From Yuukianura sp. NJ FZ-2021 (Eukaryota): 64,000 bases of DNA. Location: contig CM102285.1 in NCBI GenBank assembly GCA_046563655.1, forward strand, positions 8,122,001-8,186,000, written 5' to 3'. Under the pieces are notes generated by a model, which did not search any database, was not told the DNA's origin, and was given only the letters and a program-made list of their open reading frames with translations. Position 1 is the stretch's first letter, and every line of letters begins with the position of its first letter. Positions 2,701-24,100 of the stretch are shown piece after piece. A program made the translations under genes and the position numbers.

Positions 2701-4152
2701 CTCCATGTGCGAAACCCCTACCATGATGAATTCCTGGACTACATTAAAGTATTAAGTCCAATTTATCCCATGTTAACGCGATTGTTGGAAACTGTGGTAT
2801 ACCTTTCTACACTAATAGAAGACGTACTAATAATCTCCATATAAAATATTCTTCTTACAATGTCTGTTTTTAGAACATAGATGATCCCATCAGCAAACAT
2901 GTGACGCAACAGATCGGTTCGTGTAAACAAGCCTCACCCGTGAATGCCGGACCAATGTCGCGTTCCACAAAAAACCTAATTCAATACTTAGAAGATCCTC
3001 GGTTCAAACAAATGGTGATTGAAACAAGATTCCTAAGGGAAAAAAATTGTGAAACTGTTTGTGTGTGCCTTTAAATTCAATTTTAATCCTCTACTGATGC
3101 ATAATATGTTTAACCTAGTTGCTGAGTGGACGGTGTGCTTATGACATTGACGGTCAAGTTTTAGGTGTTTCCCATACGGGTCCCCGCTACATGGTATCCA
3201 GGTAGGTAAAACTATTGTATTTCCTATTTACGAAACCCTTAGCCGGTATAATAGTTGGTATTTTCTGTTGTTAGTTCGTGGATTTTAGATAGCAACCAAA
3301 TGGATTTCCCCGAAGCAATCGTTAAATTTGAAAAGAAATTATCAAAACATGGTGCGAGTTTCGTAAAAAGTCGTTGGACTGATGCCGCTGGGAATCATGA
3401 CACCTTAAGGATCCCTAAACCCAAAGCTGGTAACCTCCTAAAACCTTAAATCGAGAAATCTTTTCTGATTTGTATTGTTGTGTCCTTAGTTTTCTTCCCC
3501 CAAGATCTGCTGACACCTTCTCCCATTGAAGGGGGGGTTTTCTATTGTGGTATTTGTTACGCACATGCTGAGGAATCGAATACAAAGCAAATGGATGGTC
3601 CTGAGCCTCAGAAATTTACAGTTACTGAATTTGCCGATCATGTGTTAGAGCACGATCCCCTCTCCCGAATCGACCAGCCCTGTGGGTGTTACCAGACACT
3701 ATGGGTTTCCAATCGAGATGCCCATGCCCTCCGTTGCTCTTCCTGGGTCTGCTTTCATCACGACTTTACTGTACGTGAAAAAATCTATCGAACCATGTCC
3801 TTTGGTAAATAGTCTAATCGCCTTTTCATTCTCTTTTCAGGCCGAAGAAAAACGCAACCATCTATTTAAAGACAAAGAACATAATCAAAAACACCGTGGT
3901 TGCAATTTTTGTAATTTATGCAACGAAAATTTGAAGAATATTGAAGAATTTGAACGTCATAATGTAGAGCAGTGTAGGTTTTGCCGTAATTGTTGGACGC
4001 TCTTTTCCGAGTTAGACGTGTCCCGTGAGGAACACCAAAGGTTGTGCTATCGTTGTTATTGCGGTGTTATCTATACCAGTCCGCAAGAGTGCCTTAATTG
4101 TCGGGTACACTGTTTGAAAGGAAATGTGTATTTGCCCCGCCTTATAAACTAA
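2701..4152 (+). pseudogene. Last six exons of the element-borne antisense Cys/His-rich gene (copy A), interrupted by the LINE insertion
   Basis: Exons 2701-2796, 2874-3014, 3119-3201, 3275-3429, 3490-3770, 3841-4152 join in frame across GT-AG introns. The five complete exons have the same lengths as in copy B. Confidence 0.85.
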
Positions 4153-4239
4153 GTGTGTTATATTCTAATGATTAAAAATCAACCCTATTTGTGTTACCTA
4201 TATTACATCACCCTCTTCGCTAAAAAAAATTTCCTTTAA

Positions 4240-4812
4240 GGACGGGTAAGAGGCAGCGTTTGTTTAAGATTTGGTGTCAGCCATTGTCATTAGTAACAAA
4301 GCAAAATCACTGCTCAAACTTGCAAAAGTCGGCACTGTTTCCAATGGTTGACAAACCAAAGTTTTTCGTAGGATAGTAATTCAAACATCCATGGGTTCAA
4401 CAACAACTTTGTGCCCATGGAGACGGTTGAATTCAGTGCCGATATTTGCAAATTGTTGAATAATGTCAGAATTACATCTGTTTTGTCTTATAACTTTTTT
4501 ATTATAAGACCTAAAAATGCGTTTGAGGTGTCTAAAAATCCGAAAGACCATGGCACATAAGTTATATTTACCAGATTCCCGAATTTTTTTATCATAACAG
4601 GCTTAGAAAAAAATAAACGTTGTATGCAATTTTTAACCTCATTCCAGAACAAAAAGGCAAATTCTGAGAAATATAACTTATTCTACTGATAATAACGAAT
4701 TTTTAGAGTCCTCATACACATTTCTGCGTTATTCCTGTGAATACTTATAGGACCCTAAAGTTAATTAATTTGAGCCGAAACGAGACCCACCGTTGCCATG
4801 TGTGATTCCTTC
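4240..4812. mobile_element. ~570 bp non-coding insertion flanked by TTAA (Kolobok-like or other TTAA-specific MITE)
   Basis: Absent from the homologous position of copy B; TTAA at 4236-4239 and 4813-4816; only weak purine-starting terminal inverted similarity. Confidence 0.55.
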
Positions 4813-4869
4813 TTAAACCCGTTTTTATTTGTTTTATTACGTATGAATCCGGTTCAAATAAAACCAATA

Positions 4870-5248
4870 TGAGAGGACCTCCTGCGGATGTGTCACTCCC
4901 ACGTCGACAGAAGCCCAGGAAGAGACATCGTCATGCTGTATCTCGGATGGCCTGGATCCAGATTCTTCCCAACTCTGCCAATGAACACAAATACCAAAAA
5001 CTCTGCTAACAACAAACTCCAAACTCTCCTTCCAAATGGGTCTCAGGTATCTTTATTCACAATCCCCCGATAACCGAAGTGTTCCCTCTCACTGGACTCA
5101 AATCGTAATACTTCCTTGGGTAGAGATCCTCTCCTGAGGACCTCTACTCAAGTACTGACTGTGGCTGAGTCGCTCCTCTCCTTAGCGCCTACAGCCTGTA
5201 GAGCTGTATCCACGAGTGAGGTTACTTACCCCGGAAAGAGACCTCACA
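4870..5248 (-). repeat. LTR (5' LTR of copy A)
   Basis: TG...CA ends; about 25 differences from the 380 bp LTRs of copy B by manual count. Confidence 0.95.
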
Positions 5249-5847
5249 GTCCGGGGTACAGAGCTATAAATACTGGCGATCTTGTCGAGATTTACAAATG
5301 TGATGTCATTACTGATTACATGCTGCTACCACAAACTGAGTGCGTCTTAGAATGGCCCATTGAATTTTTTCATTCTACAGAAAAACGGGAAGGTTATTTG
5401 GCTGGAATTACGCACGAGATTTTTGACAAACCAACCTACGTTGCATGCCAAGCTCCAAATTATTATTTAAATTACGGAAATCTCACTCTTCACCTCACTA
5501 ACCGAACTGCTGTTGAAGATTATCCAATGATTTCTTTTTCTTACAGTGATTTAGAGATTGCAAAAATGTCCGGACTTAGTTTTACCTCACCAGGTTCTTA
5601 TTCTGTGGAGGAAATAACAGGTTCAGACACATTCATTGCTCTTAGGAGGGAAATCCAAAATTTAAATCGCATAGATTATCTAGTAGACAAGTATGTAAAA
5701 GGAGAAACTTTAGATCCTTTTGACAACAATTCTTTGTCTCGTTTCAGTGAATTCATCATTTCTCCGTTTCAGGATAACATTTCTTTTATTGGACTGATTG
5801 TTGTCGCAACTTTCTTATTTCTACTTTTTATGAAATTCTGCTACTAA
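5249..5847 (+). pseudogene. C-terminal part of an env-like class III (chuvirus-G/gB-like) glycoprotein of a different, older LTR element, including a transmembrane helix
   Basis: YRAINTGDLVEIYKC...ECVLEWP...GYLAGITHEIFDKPTYVAC aligns with env-1 YIATLAGDAISLKMC...NCTRNMP...GYMNALSHQIVLEPEPVLC; hydrophobic ISFIGLIVVATFLFLLFM. The first ~44 aa of track ORF 5116-5847 are LTR sequence. Confidence 0.75.
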
Positions 5848-8450: not shown

Positions 8451-10905
8451 ATATGGGACGAACTTGAAAGGAAATTAATTGTGTAATTAGCTATTTAAGG
8501 ACTTGCCACACCTGGAACTGCACCAATCGATGGTCAAGCAGAGACTCTTTCAAATCTTAGCTCACTAGACAGTGACCTTACCAGGTGAAGCTAGTGTTCC
8601 AAAAGTTTCTTTGGTTCATCGAATAAACAAACGACTCAAGTGTCATATTTTCTTTCTTGATTTTTTATTGTTTCAAGTCGTCAGGACTTGTAATATTGGG
8701 TAAGTCTAAATGTCCAGTTTTCGATGAAAGGTCATGGAAGGTCATTGTTCCTTGTCATATTTTCTCCATTCGTTGTGACATTCTGTGTAATGCCACGGCA
8801 ATGTTCAGTCATTGCCATACTTTCATTACAATTTTCAAAATTACTAATTTTTCTTTTTATTTTTCCAGATTCTCTCCAGCCGATGTCTCCTGCCTCAATC
8901 AACACTACTTCGACGATTCCGATGCCAAAGCCGCCGACCATTTCGACTCTCAGTAATTGCAATCCACCCAATGGAGCATTGGATTTCACGAAATGGCGAA
9001 TTCCTAAGAGGTCAACTCGGGATGGCGAGGAACAAACTCTCATACTGCCGACTAAAGCGGAAAGGTTAGTACGGCCCTACTACTTCAAACTCGATGTCCA
9101 AAACTCTGCTCATGGTGCCTGCGTTTTGGCCACGAGATTGGACGATGCATCTTTCGAGCCCTTCAACTGATACCGACCTCAACGCTATCCTTCTCCAAAT
9201 CATGATGCTCCAGGAGAAGCATCGAACTAAGGTGGTAGGAATGTTATGATAACATAACGTCAACTATTTCTTAAAGTTCAAAAGTAAAGTTCATATGCAA
9301 ATGATCTGTTCGTTAAAGTTCATTTCTGCAAACAAAAGACATTTTCCTTTTGTTAGACATAGAATGTAGTTTGCAAATACTTTACATGTATGCCAAGTAG
9401 GGTAACTTGTGTCTTTGTTTTACTCCAGTGGTTTCCGGCTGAGACTCTATAAAAGGGCTCAATCAGGCCAATACAGAATGATTCTTTCCTTCTAGTTTCC
9501 TCTGGAACATTCCCTCTTGTACGGCCTCACTGCGAGGTCAGGGCTTAGTGTCCTTGTCCCTTCTTGTATTGAAATAAACACGGGTCAATACCATCTTTCA
9601 CATTGCAACTGGCAATTCCAACTCCGACTTTGAGAAGTACATTCATTTCAGTACAATGTTATGGATTTTTGATTCTTTAAGAAAACCTGTAATGCAAGAG
9701 ATCCAAGCCTTCAAAAGAATCATGCTTGGCATGAAGATGAGGGAGAAGAGCCGCAGGAGAATGCCAAGAAAGCCCTTGAATATTTGAACATCGTGGCGAA
9801 CACAAGCCCGATGAGTCAGAGGCAAGCGACAATGAAGGACACGTGGAAGTGCAAGCGGAATCGAAGCTGGAATACATGCGCCGTGCCGAAGAGTAGGAAC
9901 TCAACCTTCCATCAAATCCTTTTAAATGAAGGTGGTCTGGTTTACAAATTTAGAACCTCAATCACCTTTTCCGTTCCACGCTTGTCTTGGATTCGTCCGA
10001 TACTGTTCAGGTAATTAAGTTTGTCGCCAGAAATACTGAGTTTGCCATTTTTCTGGTTAAATTTAGAGTTACCTTTACAGTTCGGATGGATTCGTGGACC
10101 TTGTCTGTGCCATCTGTGTAAACGTTGGCGAAAAAGATATCTGGAATAACCTAACCCAACAAGTTAACTTAACTCTGGTATAACCTAAGCAATAAAATTG
10201 AAAGCAACGGAAAGGTGCTAACACTGCTGAAGGAATGACCGAAAAACTGAATGCCATGACAACCACGTGTTTGTGGAATTGCCCCAGTCGATTCCACTAG
10301 AATCTGTAGTTTAAAGTTCCCGCTAACTTTACATTTAAAATTCCCACAATTTCAGGCGTCGATCTTAGCCCTTTGTCACTGGTAGTACAATGCTTTCAGT
10401 CTGCTAAGTATTCGCTCTCTCACTTCTCATTAAGAATTAATTGTTTTCAATTAAGTAAACTAAGGGTCAAAAGCCATGTTTGATCTGAGCTTCTGAGATT
10501 GGTCAAAAAGGCTTTCCTGTCTTGCATAAAACTGTCACTTCAGAAAAACATATTAAAATTATTAAGAGAATTCTATGCTAGATAGTGATATTAATCTTAC
10601 TCAATCCCAACCTTATTATTACTAACCAAATATTGTCACACTGTTTTCAAGCTTGTCGAAGACGAACACTCTGCAGAATAAATACAATGGGGAAAAAAGA
10701 ATTTAAACATCAGTTTAAGACTAGAGATTTGAAGGAGAAGGATAGTGCCAAAACTATGCCGGGGCCAAGTTTTCATATTTATAATTTACTATTTTCAATG
10801 TATATAAGTTGTAATTTTGAGACATAACGCCAAGCTCATTATGAACCCATTTCCCAGAAAACGTAAATCGAGCGGCGTTGAAATTAGCAGTATAAAACAC
10901 TCAAG

Positions 10906-11324
10906 ATGGGAGAAGAAAACATTGCCTTAGCCCTCCTTGCACTTAAAAATCTTGTCAAGGTCAACTCAAATCATGCTTCACTTTCTCAACAACTCCAGTC
11001 CCTCACAGCTGAAGTCACTTCAATCAAACAAAGAGTCCAGATTACTGAAGATGAACAGAAAAATTCAATTCAAAATGCACAAGCCCACGAGGCAGACAAC
11101 GAAAGACTTCAAATCGCTGTCAATAAAACTAATCTCGTCTTACACATCCTTCAAAGTATTACAAATGAAACGAAACGATCGCTTATGTCCGAAATTGAAT
11201 CAATTTTTGCCCATAGTTTGCAGATTACCTAACCTAACCCAATGTTTCTTGTCATTGAAGCTTATAGAGGTTGCAAGTGAATTCTACAAAACCCAACCAA
11301 GCAAATCAAAATTGTTTTCAAATC
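10906..11324 (+). pseudogene. Decayed LINE ORF1 (coiled-coil), cut by the LTR element
   Basis: Coiled-coil ORF (LQSLTAEVTSIKQRVQITEDEQ...NKTNLVLH); LINE ORF2 remnants resume after the right TSD. Confidence 0.55.
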
Positions 11325-11329
11325 CCTCG

Positions 11330-11709
11330 TGAGAGGACCTCCTGCGGATGTGTCACTCCCACGTCGACAGTAGCCCAGGAAGAGACATCGTCATGCTGCA
11401 TCTCGGAGGGCCTGGATCCAGGCTGTTCCCAACTCTACCAATAAGCACAAATACCAAGACTCTGCTAACAACAAACTCCGAACTCTCCTTCCAAATGGGT
11501 CTCAGGTATGTCTTTATTCACAATCCCCCTATAACCGAAGTGCTCCCTCTCACTGGACTCAAACCGTAATACTTCCTTGGGTAGAGATCCTCTCCAGAGG
11601 ACCTCTACTCAAGTACTGACTCTTGCTGAGTCGCTCCTCTCCTTAGCGCCTACAGCCTATAGATCTGCATCCCCGAGTGAGGTCACTTACCCCGGAAAGA
11701 GACCTCACA
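11330..11709 (-). repeat. 3' LTR (380 bp)
   Basis: TGTGAGG...CCTCTCA on minus strand, AATAAA on minus near 11513-11518, about 3 substitutions versus the 5' LTR. Confidence 0.97.
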
Positions 11710-11723
11710 CACACCCCCCGTCC
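11710..11723 (-). promoter_or_regulatory. Polypurine tract
   Basis: GGACGGGGGGTGTG immediately precedes the 3' LTR on the minus strand. Confidence 0.8.
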
Positions 11724-11954
11724 AGTGAGAAAATTCACTAGCGGTTACTGTTACACTGCCTAGAAGTGTTAGTAAGATGTTATGGTAAACCCAAAAAAAA
11801 ATTTTCATTCGTAAGTTTTGTATTTTTGTATTTGATTTTTGAATGCACTTAAAGATAAACTACATGCTGTAACATACAGCGATAACTAAGACCCGTCACC
11901 TTCATCTAGGGTTGATTCCCAACTACGTATATGTGTGTTAGTATTTGAATTATT

Positions 11955-12984
11955 TTAATTCATGCGTGGCTTATCGTTGCAGCGTCCAATCTGAATCCCC
12001 AATAACGACACTTTGTCTTCGGCCTGACCATTTCGTAAGACCTCGTCGAACTCATTCGTTAACGGCAGGAAGTCTGATGTGGTGGTCAAAGAGGGTGCCC
12101 AGCGGTCCGTGGTCCACACTAGACGAACGTAATGAAGGCGTTGTCCACATATTGGCTCCACAAACATTGAGGCGACGAAGAAGCCAAGCGATGGACAGCG
12201 GATGAAGGTTTCACCTAATAGGCAAGTTTGATTAACATAAATGAGGCTTGAGCAGGGAGGTTCATTTCGAAAAACTTTATATTTGGAACCCCAAACCAAT
12301 GTTGATGAAATCATGTCACAAACTTCCGCTTTAATATCGCAAGGCATCAGGGACGGCATACCTTCGACAGTAATTTCGCCTCTTACATTAGTCCAAAACG
12401 GTCGAATAGTTAAGTAGTAATTCGTGACTTGGCTAGTTATGGTGGTCGGCCATTTGTACCAAGTAGTAGGCCGCCGTTGTGTCCCAAAAGTAGTGTCGTT
12501 TAGTCGTAAAAGCGGTGTTCCATTTGGGTCCCGGTAGGTAATAGCCAAAAGTTGGCAGTCTAGTCCTGACATGCGTTCCCAACGCTCTTCCTCATACGGG
12601 TAGTATATCCCAAAGAAGTATAACGTTTTAGATTCATACAAAATCTGGCGGCGGCATTCCAAGGCCAAGTCTGGTTGTTCTAAGTTTTCAGACGTATGTA
12701 AATCTAACGTCACCATCGCCTCGGGGACTTGAGAAGACGGAAGACAAGAATGTCGGTTTCCCCGTAACGCATACATAATTCCGAGTGTCCAATGTGACCG
12801 TTGCTCTAATGACTGAACTGGATATTTGTCACGTGATAATTGACCCATTTTCGCATCTGTTGCCTGAGACAAAGTGATATTATTGTTGTTGACCGTTGTT
12901 ATTTGCATCAAGTCGTTCTGCATCTCACGCTGAGTCGCCACAACACCCCCCCACCATGATGAGGAAAATTAGTGTGTTAACCAT
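11955..12984 (-). CDS. env-like paralog 4: secreted class III fusion-domain-like protein (one G-run frameshift after the start)
   Basis: ATG at 12984 gives signal peptide MVNTLIFLIMVGGVVA if the G7 run at 12946-12952 is G6. Motifs ECRRQ...LYFFG...DC...YKWP...VTNYY...CDIKAEVC...LVW. No TM helix. Confidence 0.8.
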
Positions 12985-13100
12985 CTTCTGCAATGCACAG
13001 AGAACAAAATGTATTATACAATAAAAGTACCCTTATTTGTAATTAATTATCCCATAAGCCCCTGTAAGCAAAACAAAATTAAAAATTAGTAAATGTTGCC

Positions 13101-14339
13101 TTATTTCTTAATAACCAATCCCGCGTCGATTTTAATAATAGAGTTATTGTTTAAAAACGCCGCCACATCGAAAGTTTCGACGTCCTCATTCTCATCCCAT
13201 TCCGTAACTCGTCGAGCAGGCACCGTAGGTTCTACATCCATGTCATTAATGTGAAAAGGTTGATACTTCTGGAGGTTTAAAATAGTCTGAGGACGTGGAC
13301 TCGTGCGTACTGGTGGAGAATTGAGTTGCTGTTGGTCCACTGGGCTGCAGGATGCAATATGCAGTACTTTAAGATAACTTGGAGAGCCCCACTGTATACT
13401 CTGATAGAGATGTTGAAAATTCATCTCGATGTGAAAGGTTTGTGTTGTGTCGATGGTGTTAGTTTCGGTAGGAGGCAGAGTTTCCTCGGTCTCCAGAATG
13501 CTCCTCGAAACTCCCAAAGGTGTACCGCAGTCCTCCGTAGACGAGTTGTAGTAATCGGTAATACTAATAGCAAGGTCGGGGCAAATTAACTGTGCCGGAT
13601 TTAAGTAGCAGTTGGAAGGCATCTGTTTTTTCAGTGCGCATGAACTATTTTGAATTCCCGGGAAACGCCAGACTAACAGTCCTCTCTGTGTCCAACAGGA
13701 TAGATCCTTAAACGGGCAAGGTGATTGCAAGTCCGGGAGGAGGGAAGCACGTACGTTGCCGGAATAAGGATCATGTTGCATATCCACAAGTGAAATATAA
13801 TAATTAAGGATTCTAACCCCCCATGGTTCTTTATGTCCAAATTGCGTATCATTTGTTATCAAAAAATTACGGGTAGCTAAAGTGGTGTCATTCAGAATAG
13901 ACATAGGATATCCATCAGGATCAGTCCGCGTAAGATGCATATGGATGCATTTTGTTGGAGTAATAGCTTGTGGAAAGAGCGTAGTGTTGGTGGAGAAGGG
14001 TTTGGAGTGTGACGGATTATAGTACAATTCCTTAACCTCAAGGACACAATGATACCCCTGCACGTAAGTGGTCGGAGAGAGGCCACTCCATAGGGCGACA
14101 GAAATTAAGGCGGAATCTTTTAAATCATAAGGGCAGCTTTCAGGGCGGGTCCTTAGCATTCCCAAAGTCCAAATGCGAGTCCCATTGGTGGGCGGTAATA
14201 ATTCTGGTGTTTCTGTTAAAGCGGTTAAACGAGCATAATGGTCAAATTCAGTCGTGATCAACCGAATCTCCGCTGAAATTAGAGATGACATTGTAACCAG
14301 GATGACCCATAACCCCAGTGTCCCCTTAATTGAAGTCAT
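13101..14339 (-). CDS. env-like paralog 3: intact 412 aa secreted class III fusion-domain-like protein
   Basis: Signal peptide MTSIKGTLGLWVILVTMSSLISA; GYHC...TKC..M...DPDG...LNDTT...NYY...CPFKDLSC...LVW...ICPDL shared with the other paralogs; many N-glycosylation sequons; no TM helix. Confidence 0.85.
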   Translation of the reverse strand: MTSIKGTLGLWVILVTMSSLISAEIRLITTEFDHYARLTALTETPELLPPTNGTRIWTLGMLRTRPESCPYDLKDSALISVALWSGLSPTTYVQGYHCVLEVKELYYNPSHSKPFSTNTTLFPQAITPTKCIHMHLTRTDPDGYPMSILNDTTLATRNFLITNDTQFGHKEPWGVRILNYYISLVDMQHDPYSGNVRASLLPDLQSPCPFKDLSCWTQRGLLVWRFPGIQNSSCALKKQMPSNCYLNPAQLICPDLAISITDYYNSSTEDCGTPLGVSRSILETEETLPPTETNTIDTTQTFHIEMNFQHLYQSIQWGSPSYLKVLHIASCSPVDQQQLNSPPVRTSPRPQTILNLQKYQPFHINDMDVEPTVPARRVTEWDENEDVETFDVAAFLNNNSIIKIDAGLVIKK

Positions 14340-14380
14340 AGTCTGTGAAAGGAAAAGTGGAGAAAAAAATATATCAGTAT

Positions 14381-15467
14381 CTAAACAGTAGCACAGGCCC
14401 CCAATTGTTGCACTTGGATGAAGGTATTCTGTTTTACATTTAGTTGCTCTACCAAAGTCTGAAATTCCGAGTCAGCCACAAATTGGGAATTGTTCATGCG
14501 AAGGAGGGTCGTGGGAGAAGTAGTGATTTTGACAAGAAGCTGGTTAGGTTTAATGATTTCCATATAATGAGGCTGTATTTGGCGACGGGAAAAAGGGCAG
14601 TAGATGAACGTAGGCGTAACATAGCACATGTAATCTGTGTATGTAGTAAAAGCACATAGAGGATCTGAATCTACAAGGAAATGTTCTTGCAAAAGGAATC
14701 CGTTTAGTAGAAGGCAATGGCGTTGTCCAAAGTAGCAAGGTTGGGGAGGTAAAAATAAGTCTGTACTTGTAATTTGTAGAGACACTGGATCCACATGTAG
14801 GGCAACTTGATACACATGAAAATCCACAAAAATGTTTTCCTCATTCGGATGATATCGTTGATGAATCAAAGGATTACGATCCTTATAAGTCGTACGAAAT
14901 TTAGGTTTAACCCACGTCAAAAAAACTTTAAATTGAGAGTGGTTGATCGGCAGATTATAATACGCAAAGAACTCAGAGAAAGCAGGTCAATAGGCGGCCC
15001 TGATGGTCCATGTGATGCATGATCATATCGTAACATTGATCCAAAGTAAAATTGTTGTTCAAAAAAATTGTACCATAGTCGTTGTAAAAGGTAGTGATAT
15101 CTCCCAGTCGAACTGAAGCATAAGTGTGAATTGAAGATCGAGTGCTAGTACAAACATAAGCTATACGTGGATTACCATGCTTCTTGTTTAACCGAAACTC
15201 CACAGAAGTGAGTGTAGCGTCCGACAATTGGATAGGTCGTGGTTGATGATGAGAATTCATGGTGCCAATGATCCATCGATGATGGGATGGTGATGATTGT
15301 TCGCTGGTACCCCAATCGTCCCAAATCTGTCTATTATTAAACTGAGGCTCACTCTCGTCACTCGTAAAATTGTCAGTTAAAGTAGATTCCTGAAGAACTC
15401 TAATAATTGCTGAATTGCCGCAGGCCATAAAGATGATGAGGATGAACAAACACTGTAAACTAGCCAT
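14381..15467 (-). CDS. env-like paralog 2 (one frameshift near 14975-14980)
   Basis: Signal peptide MASLQCLFILIIFMACGNSA; AYVC...DQCYDM...; continues in ORF 14381-14920 with VDPVS...PCYFGQRHC...YMCY...IYCP. No TM helix. Confidence 0.75.
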
Positions 15468-15522
15468 TGCACTGTGAAAATGAAAAGTGAATGTGACGCT
15501 AACTTATGATTGTAGGAAAGTT

Positions 15523-17658
15523 TTACTCCGGGTGTGGGATACCTTTCCAGACAAAGCCTTCACCTTGAATGTAGAGCTCACACTGACGTGGTGAAGGTGC
15601 ACTCGGGACTGAAGGACTTAAGGGACCCGGTGGCTGATAATGAATGCGATACTCCCCCTCCGGCTTAGGCAAGAGTGTAGTCAGAGTAGCTGGGGTTTGT
15701 GTCTGTCCGGCTTGGAAGAGATGCTGATCACTCGTCATAGCGGGTAGTTCAAGCAAAGGTATAACCGTTTCATCTCTCCTAGACCTAGCATGATGCTTGT
15801 TGTTTCGTCAATGTGGAAATAAAATGGTGGTTAGGTCTTCACAGGTCTTCACATAAGACTGGTTCTGGTTCCAAAACAATCTGATGGGATAGGGCATTCA
15901 TGTATCCCTGCATCTTTTGGTGTTGGTACATGAAGGCCACAGGCATATTACGTGTACAATTACCAGTTTGCTGATGAATAAAATGATATGAGTCAATCTT
16001 AGTACACATCTTGAGGGAAATCGCATCTCCTGCCAATGTAGCAATGTATCTATGGTCTCGCAGAAGCATTCTAGCAATAATATTTGGAATTTTGTTCTCG
16101 GTAAGATACGTCGTTATGTCCAAGAGCTGACGTTGATTCAAACAAGTCTGCTGTACCAAGTTTTGAATGGCGTAGGTCGCGTTGGCCCGTACCATGTCAT
16201 ATAAATATTGAAATTTAGCATTCGTTTCACCAGCTGTCAAAACCGTAGCCGGCCTCGGCGTGTGGTCAGTGAGGGGATTAATTAATTGTCGATACACATC
16301 CGCCTCGGTACCTTGTAATACGGTTTGCCTGGCTCCGGATTCGTCCAGAAAGGAGCGTGAGACTTCGGGTGTAAAACTACTACTATTTGATCTTTCAGTA
16401 ACAATAGACCCGTGAAGGTGAGAAGTAGTGATGTTAATATATTCCACAGCACGCATTGGTAGATGAGTCAGAGATGGGTGATTTGTCGGAGTTGCTATCG
16501 GAACAGGTTCTTTCGTAGGTGGGTAAAAGAAGGGGTTATCCCGAAGAAAAGAATCAATCTTGGGTTCCATGGTAGTAGTTTGTCTAGTGGGTTGTATGCT
16601 ATCATTGTCCACAGTAGATGTAGAAGTAGTAGATGGCATTGACGGAAGTCGTCGATTTGTTGTTGATTCAAAACCAGGAGCCTTAGGACGACTCGCAATT
16701 TGTCTTAAAAGAGCTTCATCCGTAGTTTGATATAATTGTCGTTTTTTACGTCCTAGTCCTTTATCAGTGTTTACCCTTGTCGCCACTTCAAAAACGGATG
16801 TGATATGAGTAAAAAACGGAAGTGAATTCTGACGCTGTGGAGAGTACATAACCCCTGTGACCCGTACCCCATCTTGAGCCCACATATGTCAACCTCATGT
16901 AAGTCAACCAGATGGTATGAGATTTCCGGGCACGAAAGTTGATTATTGTTGGTTAACAAACACTCTGTGGTCTTGACCTTTTGAATTCGACAGGTTTGAA
17001 AAAGAGAATGTGTCCAGATAAGGATAGATTCTCCAGTACTTTCACATGAATCCGCGGTGGCGGCACATGTGGCGGTTAGAGGAATCGGTGCCAGAACAGT
17101 TTGATCCAGATTATTCACAGAAATAGTAATAGAAGAAAAATAGTAATTCGTCACATCCCTCTCAATGGTTTTGGGCCAAATATAGTCAATTTCCACTACA
17201 TCAGTCGTATCCCATTTATTATCCAAGAGTAGCGTCATTTGTTTTTTATTCGGTGCCAGTTTGGTAACTACCATATCATGACACTCCTGTCGTGTAACTT
17301 TGATAGGAATTTCCCTAGAAGTACTCGAGTGGCTGCCCCAAAAGAAGAACGATCGTGTTTCGACATTCTTAACCGCCTGACAATGGAATCCTTTTATCGC
17401 GTCCATATTTGGATTCTCCGTCCAAATAGTGAGTGGTACAATCGTCGTAGTCGTATGTAGCTCATCGATTTCGCAAGTTGGAGCCTCTGGCAGTCGATAT
17501 GTCAACGCGCCGCTGTTTTTGTCACAATACCACAAATGTGGCTGTTTTGGTTGAAAGGAACCGAAATATAAACGATAGAGCGTCGTTTCCTCCAAAGATA
17601 AAGATGCCGCTATTCGAAGAGTCGTAAGAGCGTAGATGAGGGAAAAGTATAGCATCAT
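15523..17658 (-). CDS. env-like paralog 1: longest class III fusion glycoprotein (chuvirus-G/rhabdovirus-G/gB-like), two frameshifts, no TM helix
   Basis: Signal peptide; GFHC...FFFWGS...QECHDM...YIWP fusion-loop pattern; furin-type GRKKR; NAKFQYLY...TCLNQ...IARMLL...YIATLAGDAISLKMC. Frameshifts at a G run near 16853 and a short tandem duplication near 15833-15853. Confidence 0.82.
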
Positions 17659-17749
17659 GCTTCCCCCCGTTGCGGGTTATCTAAAAAGTCATGCTGGATA
17701 GTGAAGGCCAGTCCACATAAAGCTAAGGAAAGAATTAGTATACAATGTA

Positions 17750-17990
17750 TCATCCGCACTCATACGCTTCAAGCCAACGCGGTGGTCGTCGTGAACGCCT
17801 TGAAGTACTAATAGACTGTATGTCTGGTATAGGAAACGGAGATTGACGAACGTCATGCGTCACGGCTGTCGATGGGGGGTTAACTGTAGGTGCAACCTCG
17901 GGTCGTGATGTCTTTATCGGGTATGCTAACCCCTGCAGCGATACTGTGGATGGTGTTTCTGCTCCTACGGTAGACCAACCCGAGGTTCTG
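17750..17990 (-). pseudogene. Remnant of a pol (integrase) C-terminal tail
   Basis: Low-complexity P/S/T tail ending TSRRSRRPPRWLEAYECG*, a typical LTR-retrotransposon pol end, placed just upstream of env-1. Confidence 0.55.
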
Positions 17991-20617
17991 TCAAACAACA
18001 TTAATACCTTCGACGATGTCTTACGCATCGGTTACAACGCTGGGCATTATGAAGACCTCACCCCGGAGTCCCTGCTAAACGACGAAGCTGAGACTACTGG
18101 CGACGTCGTTCCCCTCGATACAGATAACGATGATGATGAAGTCCGGCCTGTCATGAGCCGGTTATTGGATACCCTGGAGAATGAAATGTTAATGCCACCT
18201 CTGTCCAGCTCCGTGTCTGCAAGCTCTCCTGCCCCTCATATGCCGTCAATTTCAAAACTGACTGTTCTTAGTTTGAAATGGAAAAACTGTCTTCCCTTGA
18301 CGAAAAAATCTCGTAACTCTCGGCGTAACCGTATCCTTTCTGATTCGGAAGAGGAACTTCCCGAAACCTCTACGACCTCTGACAGGAATCCAACTCCAAC
18401 ATCATTTACGTCGCACGGATTACGTCCCCGGCGTGGAGTCATCTACACTGAACGGGGCGTGTCACCCGTGGCGCACAGTTCCCGTAACGTCAAGCGCGGC
18501 AAATCAAACCGCCGTAGGGCAGACCCGGAGATAGAGCCCCCTTTCGAGTTGAATGATGTCGACACTGAGGACAATACTCACAGTGAGTCCTTAACCTACA
18601 TCCGGAAATCCGTGGCTAAGGTGTTCGCAACGTGGAAACGGGAACTCATGACTAAAAAATGTCGCCGTACGCCTTGGCGGTATGACCCTGTCCTTGCCTA
18701 CTGTGCCTCACGAAGACTAACCACAGCCCTCTGTGGGAGCTTCTTTGATGCCCTGAAGCTAACTCTGCGTCCAAAAAGTTGGACCAAACAAGTAAGTGAA
18801 TGTACGCGTTGTTAATCTGGGTTGAATTAATGATCCGTAATGTCTTACTGCAATATAGATGAGTGACAAATGTGTAGTGTCCTTCTTCAAGGCTGTAACT
18901 CAGTCGACAGAGGAAATAAGCTTTTTTCTGAATCTCCTATGCCATTGGGTAACGGAACGTTTCCAAGACTGCGTCTACAAACGTGAGTCTCATGACATCA
19001 CTTACTGTTTCAATGTAAGTACGGTTCCTTTCAAAACGATCAGTGGGTTGTGTGGTATTACTGATTGATGTCTCGCTGTTTTAATAGTGGTTATTGGACA
19101 ATGAAATTGTGTCACGAGTCGCTTTAGCGACTTGGTGTGTGAACGCCACTTGGACAGATCCCAAGCAACCCATTCGAAACCCGTACCATGATGAGTTTCT
19201 GGACTACATCCACGTGCTAGGGCCAATTTACCCCATGTTAACTCGATTGTTGGAAAGTGTGGTAATACTTGGTACTCTAAGATAAGACACCGTTAATTAT
19301 TGTCTAAAATATTCCTATTATACGGTTTATTGTAGAACAAAGCAGATCCTATCAGCGAGCACGTAATGCAAAAGATCGCGTCCTGTAAACAAGCCGCCCC
19401 TGTGACTGCTGGACCGATGTCGCGCGCTACTAAAAACCTAATCCAATACTTAGAAGATCCTCGCTTCAAACAAATGGTAAGTTAAACCAGGTTGTTATTG
19501 ATGAAAATAATTAAATTGTATGTTGTTGACCTGCCTATCAAGAAAGTCTTTTACCCACCCATGCCTTATCTATATATCCTAGTTACTAAATGATCGAGGT
19601 GCATTTGACATTGACAGTCAGGTCTTAGCGAAATCCCATACAGGCCCCCGATACCTGGTGTCAGGGTAAGAAAAACTATTGTACCTTATGCCAGTCAAAT
19701 ATTTTACAAAGATAATAATTTTCAATATTTTATTACTAGTGCATGGTTGTTAGACAGCAACCAAATGGATTTCCCCGAGGCAATCGAAAAATTCGAGAAA
19801 AAATTGGCCAAACATGGAGAGAGTTTCGTAAAGAGTCGTTGGACTGATGCTGGCGGGAATCATGACATCTTAAGGATCCCCACACCCCAAGCTGGTACCT
19901 TTCGTTAACCTTGGATTGGTAATGTCATTCTGATTTGAATTTCCTTATCCCTAGTTTACTTTCCTCAAGACCTGTTGACCTCTTCGCCCATCGAAGGGGG
20001 CGTATTCTATTGTGGATTGTGTCATGCTCATGCTGAAGAATCTAACTCCACCCAAATGAATGGCCCCGACCCCGTAAAATTTACAGCTACGGAATTCGCG
20101 GAACACGTACTGGAACACGACCCGCTCTACCGAGTCGATCAGCGTTGTGGATGCTACCAAACTCTCTGGGTATCAAATCGAGATGCGCATGCCCTCCGCT
20201 GCTCTTCCTGTGTGTGTTTCCAACACGACTTTACAGTAAGACAAAACACCTATTGAAGTATGTCCTTTGTTAAATATTTAATGCTACGTCCTGTATTCTT
20301 TTCAGGTTGAAGAAAAACGTAAGCATCTCTTTGAAGACAAAGAACGTAACCAAGAGTACCGTGGTTGCAATTTTTGCAATCTATGTAATCAAAACATGAA
20401 AAATATTGAGGCTTTGGAGCTTCATAAGGTAAAGGATTGTGTATATTGCCGCAATTGTTGGAAGCTGTATTCGGAATTAGATATGTCGCGGGAAGAGCAC
20501 ATTAGATCCTGTAATCGTTGTTTTTGCGGTGTTATTTATACCGACCCTCTGGAATGCCTAGCTTGTCGCACATATTGTTTAAAAAGAAATGTTTATTTGC
20601 CCCGCCTTGAGAATTAA
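17939..20617 (+). CDS. Antisense multi-exon gene inside the LTR element: ~700 aa, acidic/basic disordered N-terminus, Cys/His-rich (zinc-binding-like) C-terminus
   Basis: Exons ~17939-18791, 18859-19014, 19088-19261, 19336-19476, 19583-19665, 19740-19894, 19955-20235, 20306-20617 splice in frame without stops across 60-106 nt GT-AG introns. ATTAAA near 20656. The 5' start is uncertain. Confidence 0.85.
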
Positions 20618-20756
20618 GTGTCTGCTTTGTGAAGTAAGTGCCCTTAATTATGCGTATTAAAAGCAACCTTCATTTATATTACTTGTGCTGCCTTACCTTT
20701 GCTCGCAGGGAAAAAAAATTTTTTTCGTTATTACCATGTTTATTTGATTCCGTATG

Positions 20757-20777
20757 GATCCGGTTCGAATAGGACCA
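20757..20777 (-). promoter_or_regulatory. Primer-binding site, tRNA-Tyr-like
   Basis: TGGTCCTATTCGAACCGGATC 3 nt after the 5' LTR; resembles the complement of the tRNA-Tyr 3' end (TGGTCCTTCGAGCCGGA) with a 2 nt bulge. Confidence 0.8.
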
Positions 20778-20780
20778 ATA

Positions 20781-21160
20781 TGAGAGGACCTCCTGCGGAT
20801 GTGTCACTCCCACGTCGACAGTAGGCCAGGAAGAGACATCGTCATGCTGCATCTCGGAGGGCCTGGATCCAGGCTGTTCCCAACTCTACCAATAAGCACA
20901 AATACCAAGACTCTGCTAACAACAAACTCCGAACTCTCCTTCCAAATGGGTCTCAGGTATGTCTTTATTCACAATACCCCTATAACCGAAGTGCTCCCTC
21001 TCACTGGACTCAAACCGTAATACTTCCTTGGGTAGAGATCCTCTCCAGAGGACCTCTACTCAAGTACTGACTCTTGCTGAGTCGCTCCTCTCCTTCGCGC
21101 CTACAGCCTATAGATCTGCATCCCCGAGTGAGGTCACTTACCCCGGAAAGAGACCTCACA
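20781..21160 (-). repeat. 5' LTR (380 bp)
   Basis: Near-identical to 11330-11709; followed by the PBS on the minus strand. Confidence 0.97.
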
Positions 21161-21165
21161 CCTCG

Positions 21166-24100
21166 GTGCGCGCAATACCATTTGGAATAATCGTGAACAT
21201 GTTAAAAAACTCACCCAACGCTCAAATTCACACAAGATCTACAGTTGAGTTAGGTGTCACCTAAGCTAACCTAACATTCAAATGAATCAAGGACCCACAT
21301 CTTTTGCTTCTGCCAACAAAACATCAGGACTTGGACGCAGCAACATTACCTAACGTTCTCTTACTACTAGCACATGATGACTCCTATATATCCAGAACTA
21401 ACCAACACAAAAACCAACTGAATGTAAAAAATGTAAAAAACCAATCGTCCAATGTCTTAAGAAGCCGATTAAATGTAGCAGCCCTGAATGTGTGCGGTTT
21501 CAACTCAAACGCTGATTCAATAAAATACTCCTTGACATGTACAAATTTGACGTTACACGCACCAACCCTCCACGACCTATCAACGGCTTCAATTTCTGCA
21601 TAAAGTTTGTGATTGGCTAGGAAAAGGAAGAGTGGGAATACTTATTCGTTCATCACTGAAGATTAGCAAAAAAACATTATTATACTTGGGTTAACAAAAA
21701 CGTTGAAGTGATTACGGCAAACATTCACTGATATTATGAACGATGTATCGAAACTATTACGTCACTGTTTAATGAACTAAATACAACCAGCAAATCTTCG
21801 TCCGTGCTTGGTGATTTCAACATCAATTCCATTTACATCTCTCGGAGATGTAATCATGCACTGAAGCAACTAAGTTCAGTTTTTAACAATTAGTGAACGT
21901 GTCCCGTGGTGACTGCATACTGGACTTAATATTCTGCAACAACCCCTGATCTCAATTTTTTCGATCCAGCTGTTTCTGATCACTGCGTCACTTCTATATT
22001 GGCGAATCTGTCTAAACCCAAAATAATGAAAATAAACTCCAATAACAAGACTACAAAGCCTTTGACTTTGAAGAATTTGGACGAAAGTACATTTATATAT
22101 CATTAGCATTTATATATCACATTTATATATCATTTAGCAAAAATTTTGCAAAAAGATGTCGATAATCTCTTTACTGAATTCATGTCAAAAATCAACACCA
22201 ATCTATAATCAAAACGCGTACAGTGTCAACCTCACCACAGCCACTGCCACTCTCGCTCTCCGATAACACGAAAATACTGATTTCAGAAAAGAGATAGGTA
22301 CTTCAAAATAACCCGTTCTCCCAATCTCATCTCCGTCAACTCAAACAAATTAACAAATCACTCAAATCTGCCTTCATACATGACAGAAAGTAATCACTCA
22401 ACACTGAAATAAAGAAAATTGGCCCGTTCAAAGCAATCTCCAGGATTCGTCTAAATTCAAAAAATCTTAATCAAAAACTTCTCTTTGCTGCTGAAAAAAT
22501 TAACCAATACCACACTGCAATTACTCCACACTCAAGTTCAACCTTCTAAACCACTTCTCATCAACAGACCCTGTGAACAGTTCACATTTTCTAACATTAA
22601 TACTGTAGTATTTAATCAAACTTGGAAGAACCTTAAGAACAAAAATGATAAGCGCAAAGATCAATTCGGAACTTCCAATTTGATTTTGCCACACTGCTTG
22701 GGATCTCAAAATATTAAAAACCAGGTTATCCACCTGATGAATGCTTCACCGAGAACTTTTCCTACGTCACCTAAACACTCAACAGTGATACCGTTAGCTA
22801 AAGTGTCCAAACCCTTACAGCCAAGTGAAACATGTCGTCCGATCTCTTTACAGCCTGTGATTGCAAAATTATGTGAAAGGTCTGTCCTGAGGACACAAAA
22901 AACCTTTTTCAATCTCCTGTAGGCGAATTCAATAGAGAATATGGTTTGGCTTGAGCTTGTCTTCAAACCGGATCGCAAACTGAAACCTATGCAATCCAAA
23001 AAATTTTTACTCAAGCCAACCCGAAACCAAACAGAAAGCGAGAGGAAACCGAGCCAAACAGGAGAAAACTCGAGGTCTATTGAATCGGCTTATTCAATAG
23101 ACTTTTGGAGTAAGCTAAAAGTTAGCCAAAACTAAGCTTTTTGCAATCCATGTCCAGACCAGGCTTGGAACTGGTTTACCCATTGCTTCGCCATTACTAA
23201 TTAGTAATTATTACTCCTTGTGACTACTGTCAGCCCCATAATAAGTGGTCAGCGCAGTAGTCCAATAGAAGATTAAGGTTTTAAAGTAAAAAACCATACG
23301 CCAACAACACTAATTGTGCAGTGGTTGTGATATTAAAGTAACGACGTCGGGCCCCAGTTCGGAATAGAGAAACTTCCTAGTATCATGCAGTGGAGGGAAT
23401 AACTATACAATTAAAATGAGATCTGCATTCACCTAATCATCACATTTAAACATTACGCTTAGATTCCTGCTAACAGAAGTGTATATCTTACGTAAGTTTC
23501 CTCCCGTTATGTCAAATGATTGGGACTCACCGGAGGCGCTGACCATTTTCATGGCTCTGACCATCCGGCTGATCCCACGAGTAAACATTTAACGTACTTG
23601 CGCCTAGCCTGGTACCCAATGTAATGAAACTTAGTAACATTCGTTATAATAAAAACAAATTCATAAAAGGCGGGTACAATTCATCGAATCCATCATATGA
23701 AGCAAGGAATAGGTCAGCGCCTTAGTGGTCAATGCCTATTCCTCGTCTGAAAAGTTGAAAGTAGTGAGATGGGAACAAATTTACTTGATATGGAATGCAA
23801 AAAAGTTATAAAGTTTAATTTTGTAAAAGTCAGCTGATTAGGTAAACACAATTTCAATTTGAAATTGCAATTCAAAATTTCTCCCGCCCCATCTCGGTTT
23901 TGCTAGGACGTCTGAGTTTGAGACAATCGGCTAAGTTTCAGCTTGCAAACCCAAACCGAGAGAAGCTGAAACCAAGATTCCAATTGAATTCCAGCTTCAA
24001 CTTCAGTTTAGGATTGGGTTGGTTTGAGTTTTTCGAGGTTTGCGTTTGGTTTCGGTTTTTTTCCTTTCTCTATTGAATCCCTCTCCTGAGTGATGCCCAA

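Follow-up and report, generated by a model that had tools for sequence, protein, structure and literature searches.

A stretch of the genome of Yuukianura sp. NJ FZ-2021 raises the question of how an element flanked by two nearly identical LTRs could be copied when its interior seems to lack the genes for copying, and of what the genes that it does carry might do. The element occupies positions 11330-21160 of the 64,000-nucleotide stretch of DNA that we analyzed (the window). A preliminary description of the locus had taken it for a recently inserted LTR element in which gag and pol are replaced by four viral-fusogen paralogs and an antisense gene, and had proposed that it acts as a satellite or helper-dependent envelope module. 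We have examined the ends of the element, its genes, its relatives and its occurrence in read contigs. The features are collected in Table 1.

Results

Ends and Coding Content of the Element

The two LTRs both have TG..CA ends and differ at 3 positions over 380 bp, and the TSD, PBS and PPT are all present; the structural part of the preliminary description is confirmed. The PBS sequence occurs just once in the window, where zero matches would be expected by chance. As we read it, the complement of the PBS departs from a canonical tRNA 3′ end, and no tRNA gene was found in the window. The AATAAA motif is present in the LTR on the minus strand only; by this signal, the PBS and the PPT, the sense strand of the element is the minus strand.

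Table 1. Features of the Element, of Its Second Copy and of Neighboring Sequences in the Window
Feature	Position	Strand	Remarks
LINE RT ORF	859-2418	+	
Copy 2 (fragment)	2701-5248	-	LTR, PBS region, ~600-nt insertion, antisense exons 3-8
Copy 2 LTR	4870-5248	-	93% identity to 3′ LTR of copy 1
envX, C-terminal part of a separate gB-like env	5248-5844	+	ends with transmembrane segment, stop
Left TSD copy	11325-11329	.	CCTCG, read directly
3′ LTR (element sense)	11330-11709	-	380 bp, TG..CA; 99.2% identity to 20781-21160
PPT-like run	11710-11723	-	GGACGGGGGGTGTG; abuts 3′ LTR; G-rich, minus-strand reading
Paralog D	11955-12984	-	signal peptide ATG 12984; 337-codon ORF 12968-11958
Paralog C	13101-14339	-	intact 412-codon ORF; signal peptide, no anchor
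Paralog B	14381-15467	-	signal peptide ATG 15467; two ORFs, frame break 14973-14986
Paralog A, gB-like gene	15839-17658	-	signal peptide ATG 17658; N-terminal ORF to 16771; C-terminal ORF 16888-15839
Divergent spacer	17659-17846	.	between A start (leftward) and antisense frame (rightward)
Predicted antisense gene, 8 exons	17847-20617	+	735-codon spliced ORF
Antisense exons 1-4	17847-18791, 18859-19014, 19088-19261, 19336-19476	+	
Antisense exons 5-8	19622-19665, 19740-19894, 19955-20235, 20306-20617	+	
Leader donor-like site	20692-20702	-	GCAAAG/GTAAGG; exon end 20697, 59 nt past PBS; predicted use
PBS	20756-20777	-	TGGTCCTATTCGAACCGGATCC; 22 nt, starts TGG; 3 nt inside 5′ LTR
5′ LTR (element sense)	20781-21160	-	380 bp; TATA-like motif near 21112; AATAAA 20963-20968 on minus strand
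Right TSD copy	21161-21165	.	CCTCG, read directly

With its LTRs, TSD, PBS and PPT the locus is structurally an LTR retroelement. It is not an autonomous LTR retrotransposon or ERV, because no gag or pol is encoded. A domain scan of the 81 element ORFs of at least 45 aa on both strands (10 + 31 + 40) found no gag, protease, RT, RNase H or integrase domain in any of them, in agreement with what had been noted earlier, and the identical scan detected gag/pol domains in the LINE, copia and Ty3 elements of the window. By tblastx the element did not match the Ty3, copia or LINE genes of the window, and in the remainder of the window copy 2 was its sole match.

Copy 2 has itself inserted into envX, and breaks off near 2700 at the poly(A) tail of the LINE on the plus strand with the RT ORF 859-2418, which cuts it. 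Its ~600-nt insertion is absent from copy 1. The copy had been put forward as showing that the element belongs to a family, and that is borne out; as a 5′ fragment only, however, it does not include A-D.

A Predicted Spliced Gene on the Antisense Strand

All seven introns of the predicted antisense gene are bounded by GT..AG and measure 60-145 nt, and the spliced ORF of 2208 nt contains no internal stops. Upstream, the reading frame stays open as far as 17847, and the first in-frame ATG is near 18150. Exons 7 and 8 are rich in Cys and His, and the stop is followed by ATTAAA. The divergent spacer is presumed to be the internal promoter region of this gene.

Comparison with copy 2 over 310 codons gave an amino-acid identity of 78%, with dN/dS = 0.09 and dS = 1.35, and the differences fall 38/34/131 by codon position. 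Exons 4-8 align without gaps or stops and the splice sites are kept; exons are 71-85% identical between the copies and introns 57-67%. Among the exonic variants listed, 9 of 15 are synonymous, and in organism B there is an in-frame length difference of 372 nt in exon 1. Judged by these sequence comparisons, purifying selection on the gene has been strong from one element lineage to another. The GT..AG introns, the open reading frame and the low dN/dS uphold the Cys/His-rich, 8-exon gene of the preliminary description. The exon ORFs gave no match in Pfam, a profile of exon 8 found none among 1.84 billion proteins, and Foldseek returned nothing for the protein at E ≤ 0.001. The best score of an Atlas search with the protein, 0.85, is no more than a lead.

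Could the element have arisen by deletion from a complex autonomous retroelement in which an antisense accessory gene next to the PBS was followed by gag-pol and then env, gag-pol having been lost at 17659-17846 in the window copy and a near-identical sibling? Copy 2 is consistent with this, in showing that the PBS-adjacent antisense gene is old and selected in the lineage. Furthermore, the sequence past the antisense gene in other copies has not been seen, and the A-C region is covered by single contigs only. Nevertheless, one would not normally expect 3 kb of antisense gene to separate PBS and gag, the interior is tightly tiled by genes, and there is an acceptor-like site just upstream of A. 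No loose contig end falls at 17659-17846 among the 24 of 116 listed, and four anchorless paralogs are not the residue expected of a simple deletion. We consider an origin of this kind unlikely.

Four gB-Like Paralogs on the Sense Strand

The four sense-strand genes are related to one another. D is 22% identical to the N-terminal ORF of A (E = 2e-11), C is 24% identical to D (E = 3e-7) and B is 21% identical to C (E = 3e-4), and all four contain five invariant Cys residues and an F-x22-C helix motif. Paralog A matched the Pfam family Monjiviricetes_fusion (PF24664) with a score of 41.7 bits (E = 5e-11; family cut-off 27) and herpes Glycoprotein_B (PF00606) with E = 6e-6. Its N-terminal ORF matched Rhabdo_glycop_FD with E ~0.0025-0.0026, below the family cut-off, which is the sole match bearing on the N-terminal fusion-loop and PH domains of the class III fold, and its seven PDB matches were all to herpesvirus gB helix regions (E = 0.06-0.33). 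A is the only one of the four with a direct match to a class III fusogen profile. A joint profile of the four gave no matches in the PDB, and the AlphaFold model of C had a pLDDT of 31.6, too low for use.

Each of the four has a signal peptide, and none has a transmembrane anchor or any further hydrophobic segment. Paralog A includes an RKKR sequence and the domain III helix, and ends without an anchor at a 10-nt tandem duplication, its match to the Monjiviricetes_fusion profile stopping at position 430 of 653. The yardstick for where A-D end is envX. This env matches the same family (0.0007-0.0015) and is 28% identical to the end of A (E = 2e-7), and A ends ~130 residues short of the point where envX reaches its anchor; a tblastn search of the element with the envX tail gave a best E of only 3.1. 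B and D stop 4-10 residues past the first conserved central-helix Cys (7 in B, 10 in D). A-D have the central helix (domain III) region with conserved Cys that is expected of class III, and lack the C-terminal domains IV-V and the anchor that a fusogen requires. Since there is no anchor, the products as encoded would be secreted gB-like fragments, not fusogens. Four class III glycoprotein-like ORFs had been described here. The paralogs are real and gB-derived, but the profile match is confined to A, the anchors are missing and the frames of A, B and D are each broken once in the window. The terms "viral-fusogen" and "envelope module" are not supported for a set of genes without anchors, three of which (B, D and A) end before the anchor region.

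The frame break in A sits within the 118-nt overlap of its two ORFs, which are in different frames, and that in D is at a homopolymer run right after the signal peptide. Every read contig over the overlap in A differs in length from the window, as do some read contigs at the break in D; for B there was no length difference among those listed.

The minus strand carries candidate splice signals for a sense transcript. The donor-like site in the leader is the only GTRAG on this strand from the PBS to the end of the antisense gene. Strict acceptor-like sites are infrequent, just 9 in 9071 nt, and two of them adjoin the ATGs of B (4 nt upstream) and C (3 nt). Upstream of A there are acceptor-like sites at 17722 and 17681, one of them strict, 64 nt before the ATG, and in D a cag lies 3 nt before ATG 12984. 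A joint in a DNA contig falls within 1 nt of this cag, the putative acceptor.

A second alternative is that the element is a decaying chimera, with A-D as functionless duplicates of env fragments carried as passive cargo, their frames open from youth and not by selection. The breaks in three of the four frames would be expected of such an element, and the searches returned no homologs. Moreover, non-synonymous changes make up 5 of the 8 variants listed for A-D, which gives no sign of present-day constraint on these genes. However, paralogs that have diverged to 21-24% identity retain ORFs of 200-456 codons, the five invariant Cys and signal peptides, and acceptor-like sites are retained at their ATGs. 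Not every read contig carries the breaks in A and D. In addition, a second organism (organism B) holds 11966-12535 of D with 37 differences in 570 letters (~93.5% identity). Decay of this kind seems to us distinctly improbable.

Insertion, Mobility and Proposed Helper Dependence

The exact empty site is present in contigs from two of the three runs (X1 and X3) of a source-like sample. These join 11324 to 21161 with 5 letters in common at the joint, matching the 5-bp duplication. The occurrence of the empty site in contigs of the same sample, taken with the LTR pair and TSD, indicates that the insertion is recent, as had been supposed from the LTRs, and also polymorphic; the element has therefore been mobile recently. 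A contig of 8226 nt from run X2 spans 11681-19905 with 28 differences and one gap relative to the window, and occurs alongside contigs near-identical to the window in the same sample. We count this variant as support for copying as one unit. The interior junctions are crossed by contigs of three runs (X2 over 11681-19905, X3 over 17350-18835). The complete layout of A-D and the antisense gene is known at the window locus only, plus one version ~0.3% different. The missing second complete copy is all that favors a cluster of host genes that two solo LTRs happen to flank, or a chimeric assembly, and such a non-mobile arrangement is barely credible in view of the precise empty site with its 5-bp duplication, the PBS and PPT at the inner LTR edges and the unbroken contigs of three runs over the interior junctions.

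Between copies 1 and 2 the LTR and PBS are 91.7-93.4% identical, and the interiors are saturated with changes. In read contigs of organism A, the inner PBS edge (20757/20758) is the exact starting point of at least three other continuations, and in organism B of one more; loose ends of other contigs at 20757/20758 were found in runs X1, X2 and X5. Conserved LTR and PBS, saturated interiors and alternative continuations together fit mobilization in trans by a helper. The likeness of the LTRs of copies ~6 kb apart could be due in part to local gene conversion. Helper dependence, the portion of the earlier satellite proposal that outlives the envelope module, is in this way supported indirectly by sequence, no gag-pol partner having been seen.

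Discussion

We think it probable, if by no means certain, that the locus is a non-autonomous LTR retroelement, recently inserted on the minus strand, of gB-env retrovirus-like ancestry, copied by a helper and carrying as cargo an antisense gene and genes for secreted fragments. The ancestor, retrovirus-like and akin to the errantiviruses or to BEL/Pao, would have carried an env of the gB type. The parts needed in cis for copying (LTRs, PBS and PPT) have been retained, and gag and pol are not encoded; a helper that has its LTR and PBS in common with the element would supply the proteins for packaging, reverse transcription and integration of the RNA. The signals on the minus strand suggest that the sense genes are expressed in the manner of a complex retrovirus: one LTR transcript with the leader donor at 20697 could be joined to alternative acceptors just ahead of each signal-peptide ATG, giving A, B, C or D as four secreted, anchorless fragments of the gB ectodomain. 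The usual place of gag-pol is taken by the 8-exon gene on the opposite strand, whose introns come through retrotransposition since they lie antisense to the genomic RNA. Our best guess for its protein is a nuclear zinc-binding regulator that aids expression or transmission of the element. For the secreted fragments it is binding to the receptor or the envelope of the helper, in interference or as an adaptor, not in membrane fusion.

A bolder version, tentative and to our minds rather doubtful, would have a satellite lineage that gave up gag-pol, keeps selected genes of its own, parasitizes an endogenous retrovirus and swaps LTR/PBS modules to match its helpers. In such a lineage the orphan spliced antisense gene would have replaced gag-pol, and secreted gB fragments, produced as an array by alternative splicing, might modulate the envelope or receptor of the helper.

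Non-autonomous LTR elements are usually regarded as stripped-down, non-coding hitch-hikers. ETn/MusD and VL30 of the mouse, and LARD, TRIM and BARE-2 elements of plants, are mobilized in trans, having LTR, PBS and leader in common with the helper and the interior replaced. Their interiors, as generally described, are non-coding or hold a gag remnant, and diverge while the LTRs track the helper. In contrast, the interior of the window element is dense in coding sequence, with dN/dS = 0.09 for one gene.

Refrex-1, suppressyn and Fv-4-type interference involve truncated, secreted derivatives of class I Env, anchorless or defective, that are fixed in the host as restriction factors and could hinder entry by binding a receptor. 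A-D resemble them as anchorless envelope fragments, with receptor interference predicted as a working model, but are of class III and are carried on a mobile, polymorphic element.

The antisense genes of HTLV-1 (HBZ, which is spliced) and of plant Retand/Tat elements accompany gag-pol; antisense ORFs of the latter are reported in PMC11963269. Like these, the window element has a protein-coding gene on the strand opposite the genomic RNA. Unlike theirs, its gene has seven introns, lies in the place of gag-pol, starts internally and is directed toward the 5′ LTR.

The invertebrate Ty3/gypsy errantiviruses with gB-type env are found across the metazoa and have gag, pol and one TM-anchored env; the env product carries a signal peptide and conserved Cys bridges, in some cases also a furin site (Chary & Hayashi, eLife 2026, PMC13524379). 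The window element shares with them the LTRs, the PBS and a gene for a herpes-gB-like class III glycoprotein, and differs in the absence of gag and pol, the four anchorless paralogs and the antisense gene. A term search of the text of that survey gave no hit for non-autonomous, antisense, paralogous, multiple-env or gag-lacking elements. Anakin, of the BEL/Pao group, has GAG-PR-RT-RH-INT and a single chuvirus-like G; defective LTR-flanked copies of the Anakin type are described as decayed and not as keeping an alternative set of genes, "solo" glycoproteins exist, and receptor blocking is put forward as a possible role of exported glycoproteins (Dezordi et al. 2020, PMC7642597, in the passages drawn upon). 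The class III glycoprotein within LTRs is common to the window element and to Anakin and the defective BEL/Pao copies of that paper, and the Pfam family matched by A covers G proteins of this type. The window element has instead an alternative gene set that includes an antisense gene, and none is described for Anakin in the passages concerned. The claim that no element with this layout had been described is consistent with the literature searched and with the term search of the main recent survey. We infer that the layout adds a new form to the non-autonomous LTR elements, the functions of its cargo being predicted.

What we have described is an element dense in coding sequence, at least one gene of which has been kept by strong selection both between element lineages and in a second species, and it places an orphan protein family in a concrete genetic context. 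If our reading is correct, invertebrate retrovirus-like elements can have satellites with genes of their own. An antisense gene with introns could then be inherited through retrotransposition, in a parallel from nature to the antisense-intron reporter design. Finally, anchorless class III envelope fragments may serve a mobile element itself, and not hosts alone, to interfere with or redirect an envelope.

Organization and Orientation of the Element

The element occupies positions 11330–21160, and its features are collected in the table below. The primer-binding site (PBS), the polypurine tract (PPT) and the only AATAAA of the LTR all lie on the minus strand, and the element is therefore read on that strand. 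The opposite orientation is ruled out by these three signals together with the introns retained in the plus-strand gene. The complement of the PBS has CCA at its end and contains GGTTCGAAT, in a spacing unlike that of a canonical tRNA 3′ end. Neither a tRNA gene nor any Rfam family was found in the window, and the 21-mer of the PBS had no match in metagenome contigs.

Features of the LTR element and of its cargo genes
Feature	Position	Strand	Description
LTR pair	11330–11709 and 20781–21160	minus	direct repeats of 380 bp, 3 mismatches, TG start, CA end
Target site duplication (TSD) CCTCG	11325–11329 and 21161–21165		pentamer at both flanks, by direct reading
PBS TGGTCCTATTCGAACCGGATCC	20756–20777	minus	3 nt inside right LTR; unique in window, 0 matches expected
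PPT GGACGGGGGGTGTG	adjoining left LTR	minus	same strand as PBS
AATAAA	20963–20968	minus	only one in LTR; downstream of TATA-like motif
Gene A	17658–15839	minus	signal-peptide-like hydrophobic start
Gene B	15467–14381	minus	signal-peptide-like hydrophobic start
Gene C	14339–13101	minus	signal-peptide-like hydrophobic start; frame intact
Gene D	12984–11955	minus	signal-peptide-like hydrophobic start
Antisense gene	17847–20617	plus	8 exons, 7 GT..AG introns of 60–145 nt

The Insertion Is Recent and Polymorphic

Logan contigs of four DNA runs, three (X1, X2 and X3) from one source-like sample, organism A, and one (X5) from organism B, were compared with window positions 10800–21700. In two of the three runs of the single sample (X1 and X3), position 11324 is joined straight to 21161, with five letters fitting both sides. 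This joint is the exact pre-insertion site; the insertion is therefore genuine and precise, and the sample is polymorphic for it. The preliminary description had taken this to be a recently mobile LTR element, and the near-identity of the LTRs, the TSD and the empty-site contig bear this out.

Run X2 gave a contig of 8226 nt extending through 11681–19905, with 28 differences and one gap relative to the window; contigs of X1 are near-identical to the window, with 0–2 differences per 1–3 kb. Together these indicate two versions about 0.3% apart, either copies or alleles.

The Element Lacks gag and pol

Stop-to-stop open reading frames of both strands were scanned against Pfam, comprising the 10 largest, 31 of at least 45 amino acids in 17450–20890, and 40 in 11535–17551. 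No match to gag, protease, reverse transcriptase (RT), RNase H or integrase was found for any of the 81, confirming the earlier claim that the interior has no gag, RT or integrase core. The same scan detected such domains elsewhere in the window, namely LINE RVT_1, a copia gag, and a Ty3 capsid-protease-RT-RNase H-integrase series. Comparison of the element with the rest of the window by tblastx gave copy 2, a diverged fragment of the same family at about 2700–5248, as the only match.

The RVT_1 match (E = 7e-22) lies in an RT frame at 859–2418 (plus strand) of a LINE-like element at 859–2700. At 51560–52621 (plus) lies a gag of copia type that includes a zinc knuckle. A Ty3/gypsy element at 58589–63939 (plus; domain matches 59101–63939) encodes a capsid, a zinc knuckle and a protease, and its RT-RNase H-integrase frame of 1070 codons reaches the window end. 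Neither of these two has the LTR or PBS of the element studied here. The window also contains a tandem array of about 10 units with a 46-bp period at 54754–55223, in its GC-richer right part. Two pairs of paralogous frames had no Pfam match: a tandem pair at 55303–56028 and 56046–56852 (plus; 37% identity), and an inverted pair at 47261–47749 (plus) and 48229–48666 (minus; 37–74% identity).

The Antisense Gene Is Spliced and Conserved

Spliced in silico, the eight exons form an uninterrupted frame of 735 codons (2208 nt), and an ATTAAA lies past the stop codon. Upstream of the first in-frame ATG the frame stays open for 101 codons, and this ATG is thus a start candidate only. Exon 1 is rich in acidic, serine and basic clusters, and exons 7 and 8 contain 19 cysteine and 9 histidine residues in 198.

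Copy 2 contains exons 3–8, placed with respect to the LTR and PBS as they are in copy 1. Exons 4–8 align without gaps between the copies at 71–85% identity; the introns are 57–67% identical with insertions and deletions, and the splice sites are mostly conserved. Over 310 codons the amino acid identity is 78%, with 38, 34 and 131 differences at the first, second and third codon positions, giving dN/dS = 0.09 and dS = 1.35, and copy 2 is free of stops. Among the read-contig variants listed, 9 of 15 in the antisense exons are synonymous, as are 3 of 8 in genes A–D. Judged from this pattern of codon change, the sequence is evidently a real gene under purifying selection, and the intron-rich, Cys/His-rich antisense gene of eight exons proposed earlier is upheld by the open spliced frame and the low dN/dS. 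Lying on the strand opposite to the genomic RNA, the gene does not lose its introns before reverse transcription, which accounts for their persistence in both lineages.

No exon frame matched Pfam. A profile of exon 8 found no match among 1.84 billion representative proteins, and exon 7 had no relatives among longer proteins or in metagenome contigs. The best ESM Atlas score of exon 8 was 0.85, for clusters that are either unnamed or generic zinc fingers; this is below threshold, and serves only as a lead. Structure prediction had been suggested for the cargo. A model of exon 8 (pLDDT 66.9) retrieved nothing from the PDB with Foldseek at E ≤ 0.001, and that of gene C (pLDDT 31.6, from an alignment of only four sequences) was too poor to be used. 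The antisense protein thus appears, in these searches, to be an orphan with no detectable relatives.

The Sense Cargo Comprises Four gB-Related Paralogs Without Anchors

Genes A–D are related to one another. D matches the N-terminal frame of A with 22% identity (E = 2e-11) and C with 24% (E = 3e-7), and C matches B with 21% (E = 3e-4). Five cysteines are invariant across the four, and all share an ungapped F-x22-C motif corresponding to the start of the domain III helix. Only A directly matches known families. Its C-terminal frame matches Monjiviricetes_fusion (41.7 bits against a cut-off of 27; E = 5e-11) and herpesvirus Glycoprotein_B (E = 6e-6) in Pfam, and its PDB matches, although weak (E = 0.06–0.33), are all to herpesvirus gB (seven of seven) on the domain III helix. 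An RKKR motif lies upstream of this helix, which we take to fit the place of the furin loop of gB. The N-terminal frame of A had a chance-level match only in the PDB, and a profile of the four paralogs had none. The C-terminal frame had no relatives in protein homolog searches (among longer proteins, or those of similar length over residues 200–349), and no usable match in the ESM Atlas. A search of viral contigs for loci related to the element cargo found nothing.

No hydrophobic segment was found in A–D beyond the signal peptides. B and D end 7 and 10 residues after the conserved helix cysteine, respectively, and C continues for about 85 residues with no hydrophobic segment. In A the Monjiviricetes_fusion match stops at position 430 of 653, at the stop codon of A. 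By contrast, a fragment of a different gB-like env next to copy 2, at 5248–5844 (plus), can be aligned to the final 67 residues of A and extends about 130 residues beyond them, ending with a transmembrane segment and a stop. The idea that A runs on to an anchor farther downstream was rejected: no transmembrane segment turned up, and the tail of this other env, used as a tblastn query, gave only E = 3.1. As encoded, A–D would be secreted fragments of a gB ectodomain, none of them a complete fusogen. The four viral-fusogen paralogs of the preliminary description are thus indeed four gB-related paralogs, but truncated and anchorless, and not fusogens.

Three of the four frames are broken in the window. 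A lies in two frames, with the break inside a 118-nt overlap (16771–16888); in D the break falls in a homopolymer run directly past the signal peptide, and in B at 14973–14986. At the overlap of A every covering contig, in all three runs of the same sample, differs in length from the window, and some contigs differ in length at the homopolymer run of D, showing that these breaks are not common to all versions. They may be assembly errors. A 10-nt tandem duplication containing the stop of A also differs in length in one X1 contig, and no difference at the break in B was among those listed for the read contigs. An intron bridging the two frames of A was discarded; the overlap offers a single GT..AG pair, 33 nt long, which is in frame and too short.

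Predicted Splice Signals on the Sense Strand

With acceptor-like sites defined strictly, as YAG preceded by 16 nt of which 12 or more are pyrimidines, only nine occur in the 9071-nt minus-strand interior. Such sites lie 4 nt upstream of the ATG of B, 3 nt upstream of that of C and 64 nt upstream of that of A; D has cag 3 nt before its ATG, preceded by a weaker pyrimidine tract. The leader, from the PBS up to the antisense gene, has a single GTRAG candidate donor, GCAAAG/GTAAGG, at 20697 and thus 59 nt beyond the PBS. The order of LTR, PBS, donor, series of acceptors each with its frame, PPT and LTR matches that of a complex retrovirus, the splice signals here being predictions from DNA.

In X1 and X3, a DNA contig links 12988, within 1 nt of the predicted D acceptor, with 20758, at the inner edge of the PBS. 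The shorter side has just 28 letters, and letters between the sides are possible; as a lead only, the contig could be a family copy derived from spliced RNA.

A Family Sharing One LTR and PBS

The claim that a second, diverged copy makes this a family stands in that copy 2 has the LTR, the PBS and antisense exons, but only exons 3–8 are present. The poly(A) tail of the LINE (about 2686–2700) cuts it inside exon 3, and the remainder would lie past the window start. About 600 nt of copy 2 (4222–4825), between its antisense 3′ end and its PBS, have no counterpart in copy 1. On its left, the env at 5248–5844 is broken off by the LTR of copy 2, so the target of the copy 2 insertion was the env of a different element. 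This env differs from the cargo described here; its C-terminal part, with a weak Monjiviricetes_fusion match, is what is seen, and the element that was hit presumably has it complete.

Contigs of organism B (X5) on 19333–20959 cover antisense exons 6–8, the PBS and part of the LTR (33 differences in 1150 letters, about 97% identical), and those on 11529–12535 cover D (about 93.5% identical), the PPT region and again some of the LTR. Exon 1 has a length difference of 372 nt, a multiple of three. A copy-2-like intron variant is also present, and thus at least two subfamilies are common to the two organisms.

Copies 1 and 2 are 91.7–93.4% identical in the LTR and PBS; in the interior, synonymous sites show saturation and intron identity is about 60%. 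Likeness to the element starts exactly at 20757/20758, the inner edge of the PBS, in contigs with at least three different continuations in organism A and another in organism B, indicating that several distinct interiors have one LTR and PBS module in common. Such a pattern is to be expected of non-autonomous lineages that recombine with an active helper or come under selection to match it. Alternatively, part of the likeness between copies 1 and 2 could reflect local gene conversion, as they lie 6 kb apart. Dependence on a helper is the most likely reading for the element, and we hold its mobilization in trans with moderate confidence. The helper dependence proposed earlier thus gains indirect support from the shared LTR and PBS, but an envelope module is not supported, as the cargo is of anchorless fragments. 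No gag-pol partner was seen in the window or the read contigs.

Relation to Known Elements

Among known systems, LTR elements that depend on a helper include ETn/MusD and VL30; in HTLV-1, the antisense gene HBZ is spliced; and secreted fragments of Env are exemplified by Refrex-1 and suppressyn. A literature search, with Repbase, Dfam, supplements and subscription journals outside its scope, gave no match to the layout of the element. In the accessible parts of the source, gB-type env genes occur in Ty3/gypsy errantiviruses across metazoans, always with gag, pol and a transmembrane-anchored ectodomain (PMC13524379), whereas the element has neither gag nor pol, and its fragments are anchorless. 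The BEL/Pao element Anakin, as partly described, carries a single chuvirus-like G, unlike the four paralogs here, and has defective and solo copies for which a receptor-blocking role was proposed (PMC7642597). The accessible parts of these two papers describe no element that lacks gag-pol and has multiple env paralogs or a spliced gene in antisense, and six terms for features of this kind had 0 occurrences in PMC13524379.

Confidence is low in any function proposed for the cargo proteins. It is high in the structural reading of an LTR element without gag or pol that bears a conserved, spliced antisense orphan gene. We regard the element as a variant of the non-autonomous LTR retroelements, one that lacks gag and pol and carries an antisense orphan gene and anchorless gB-like cargo.
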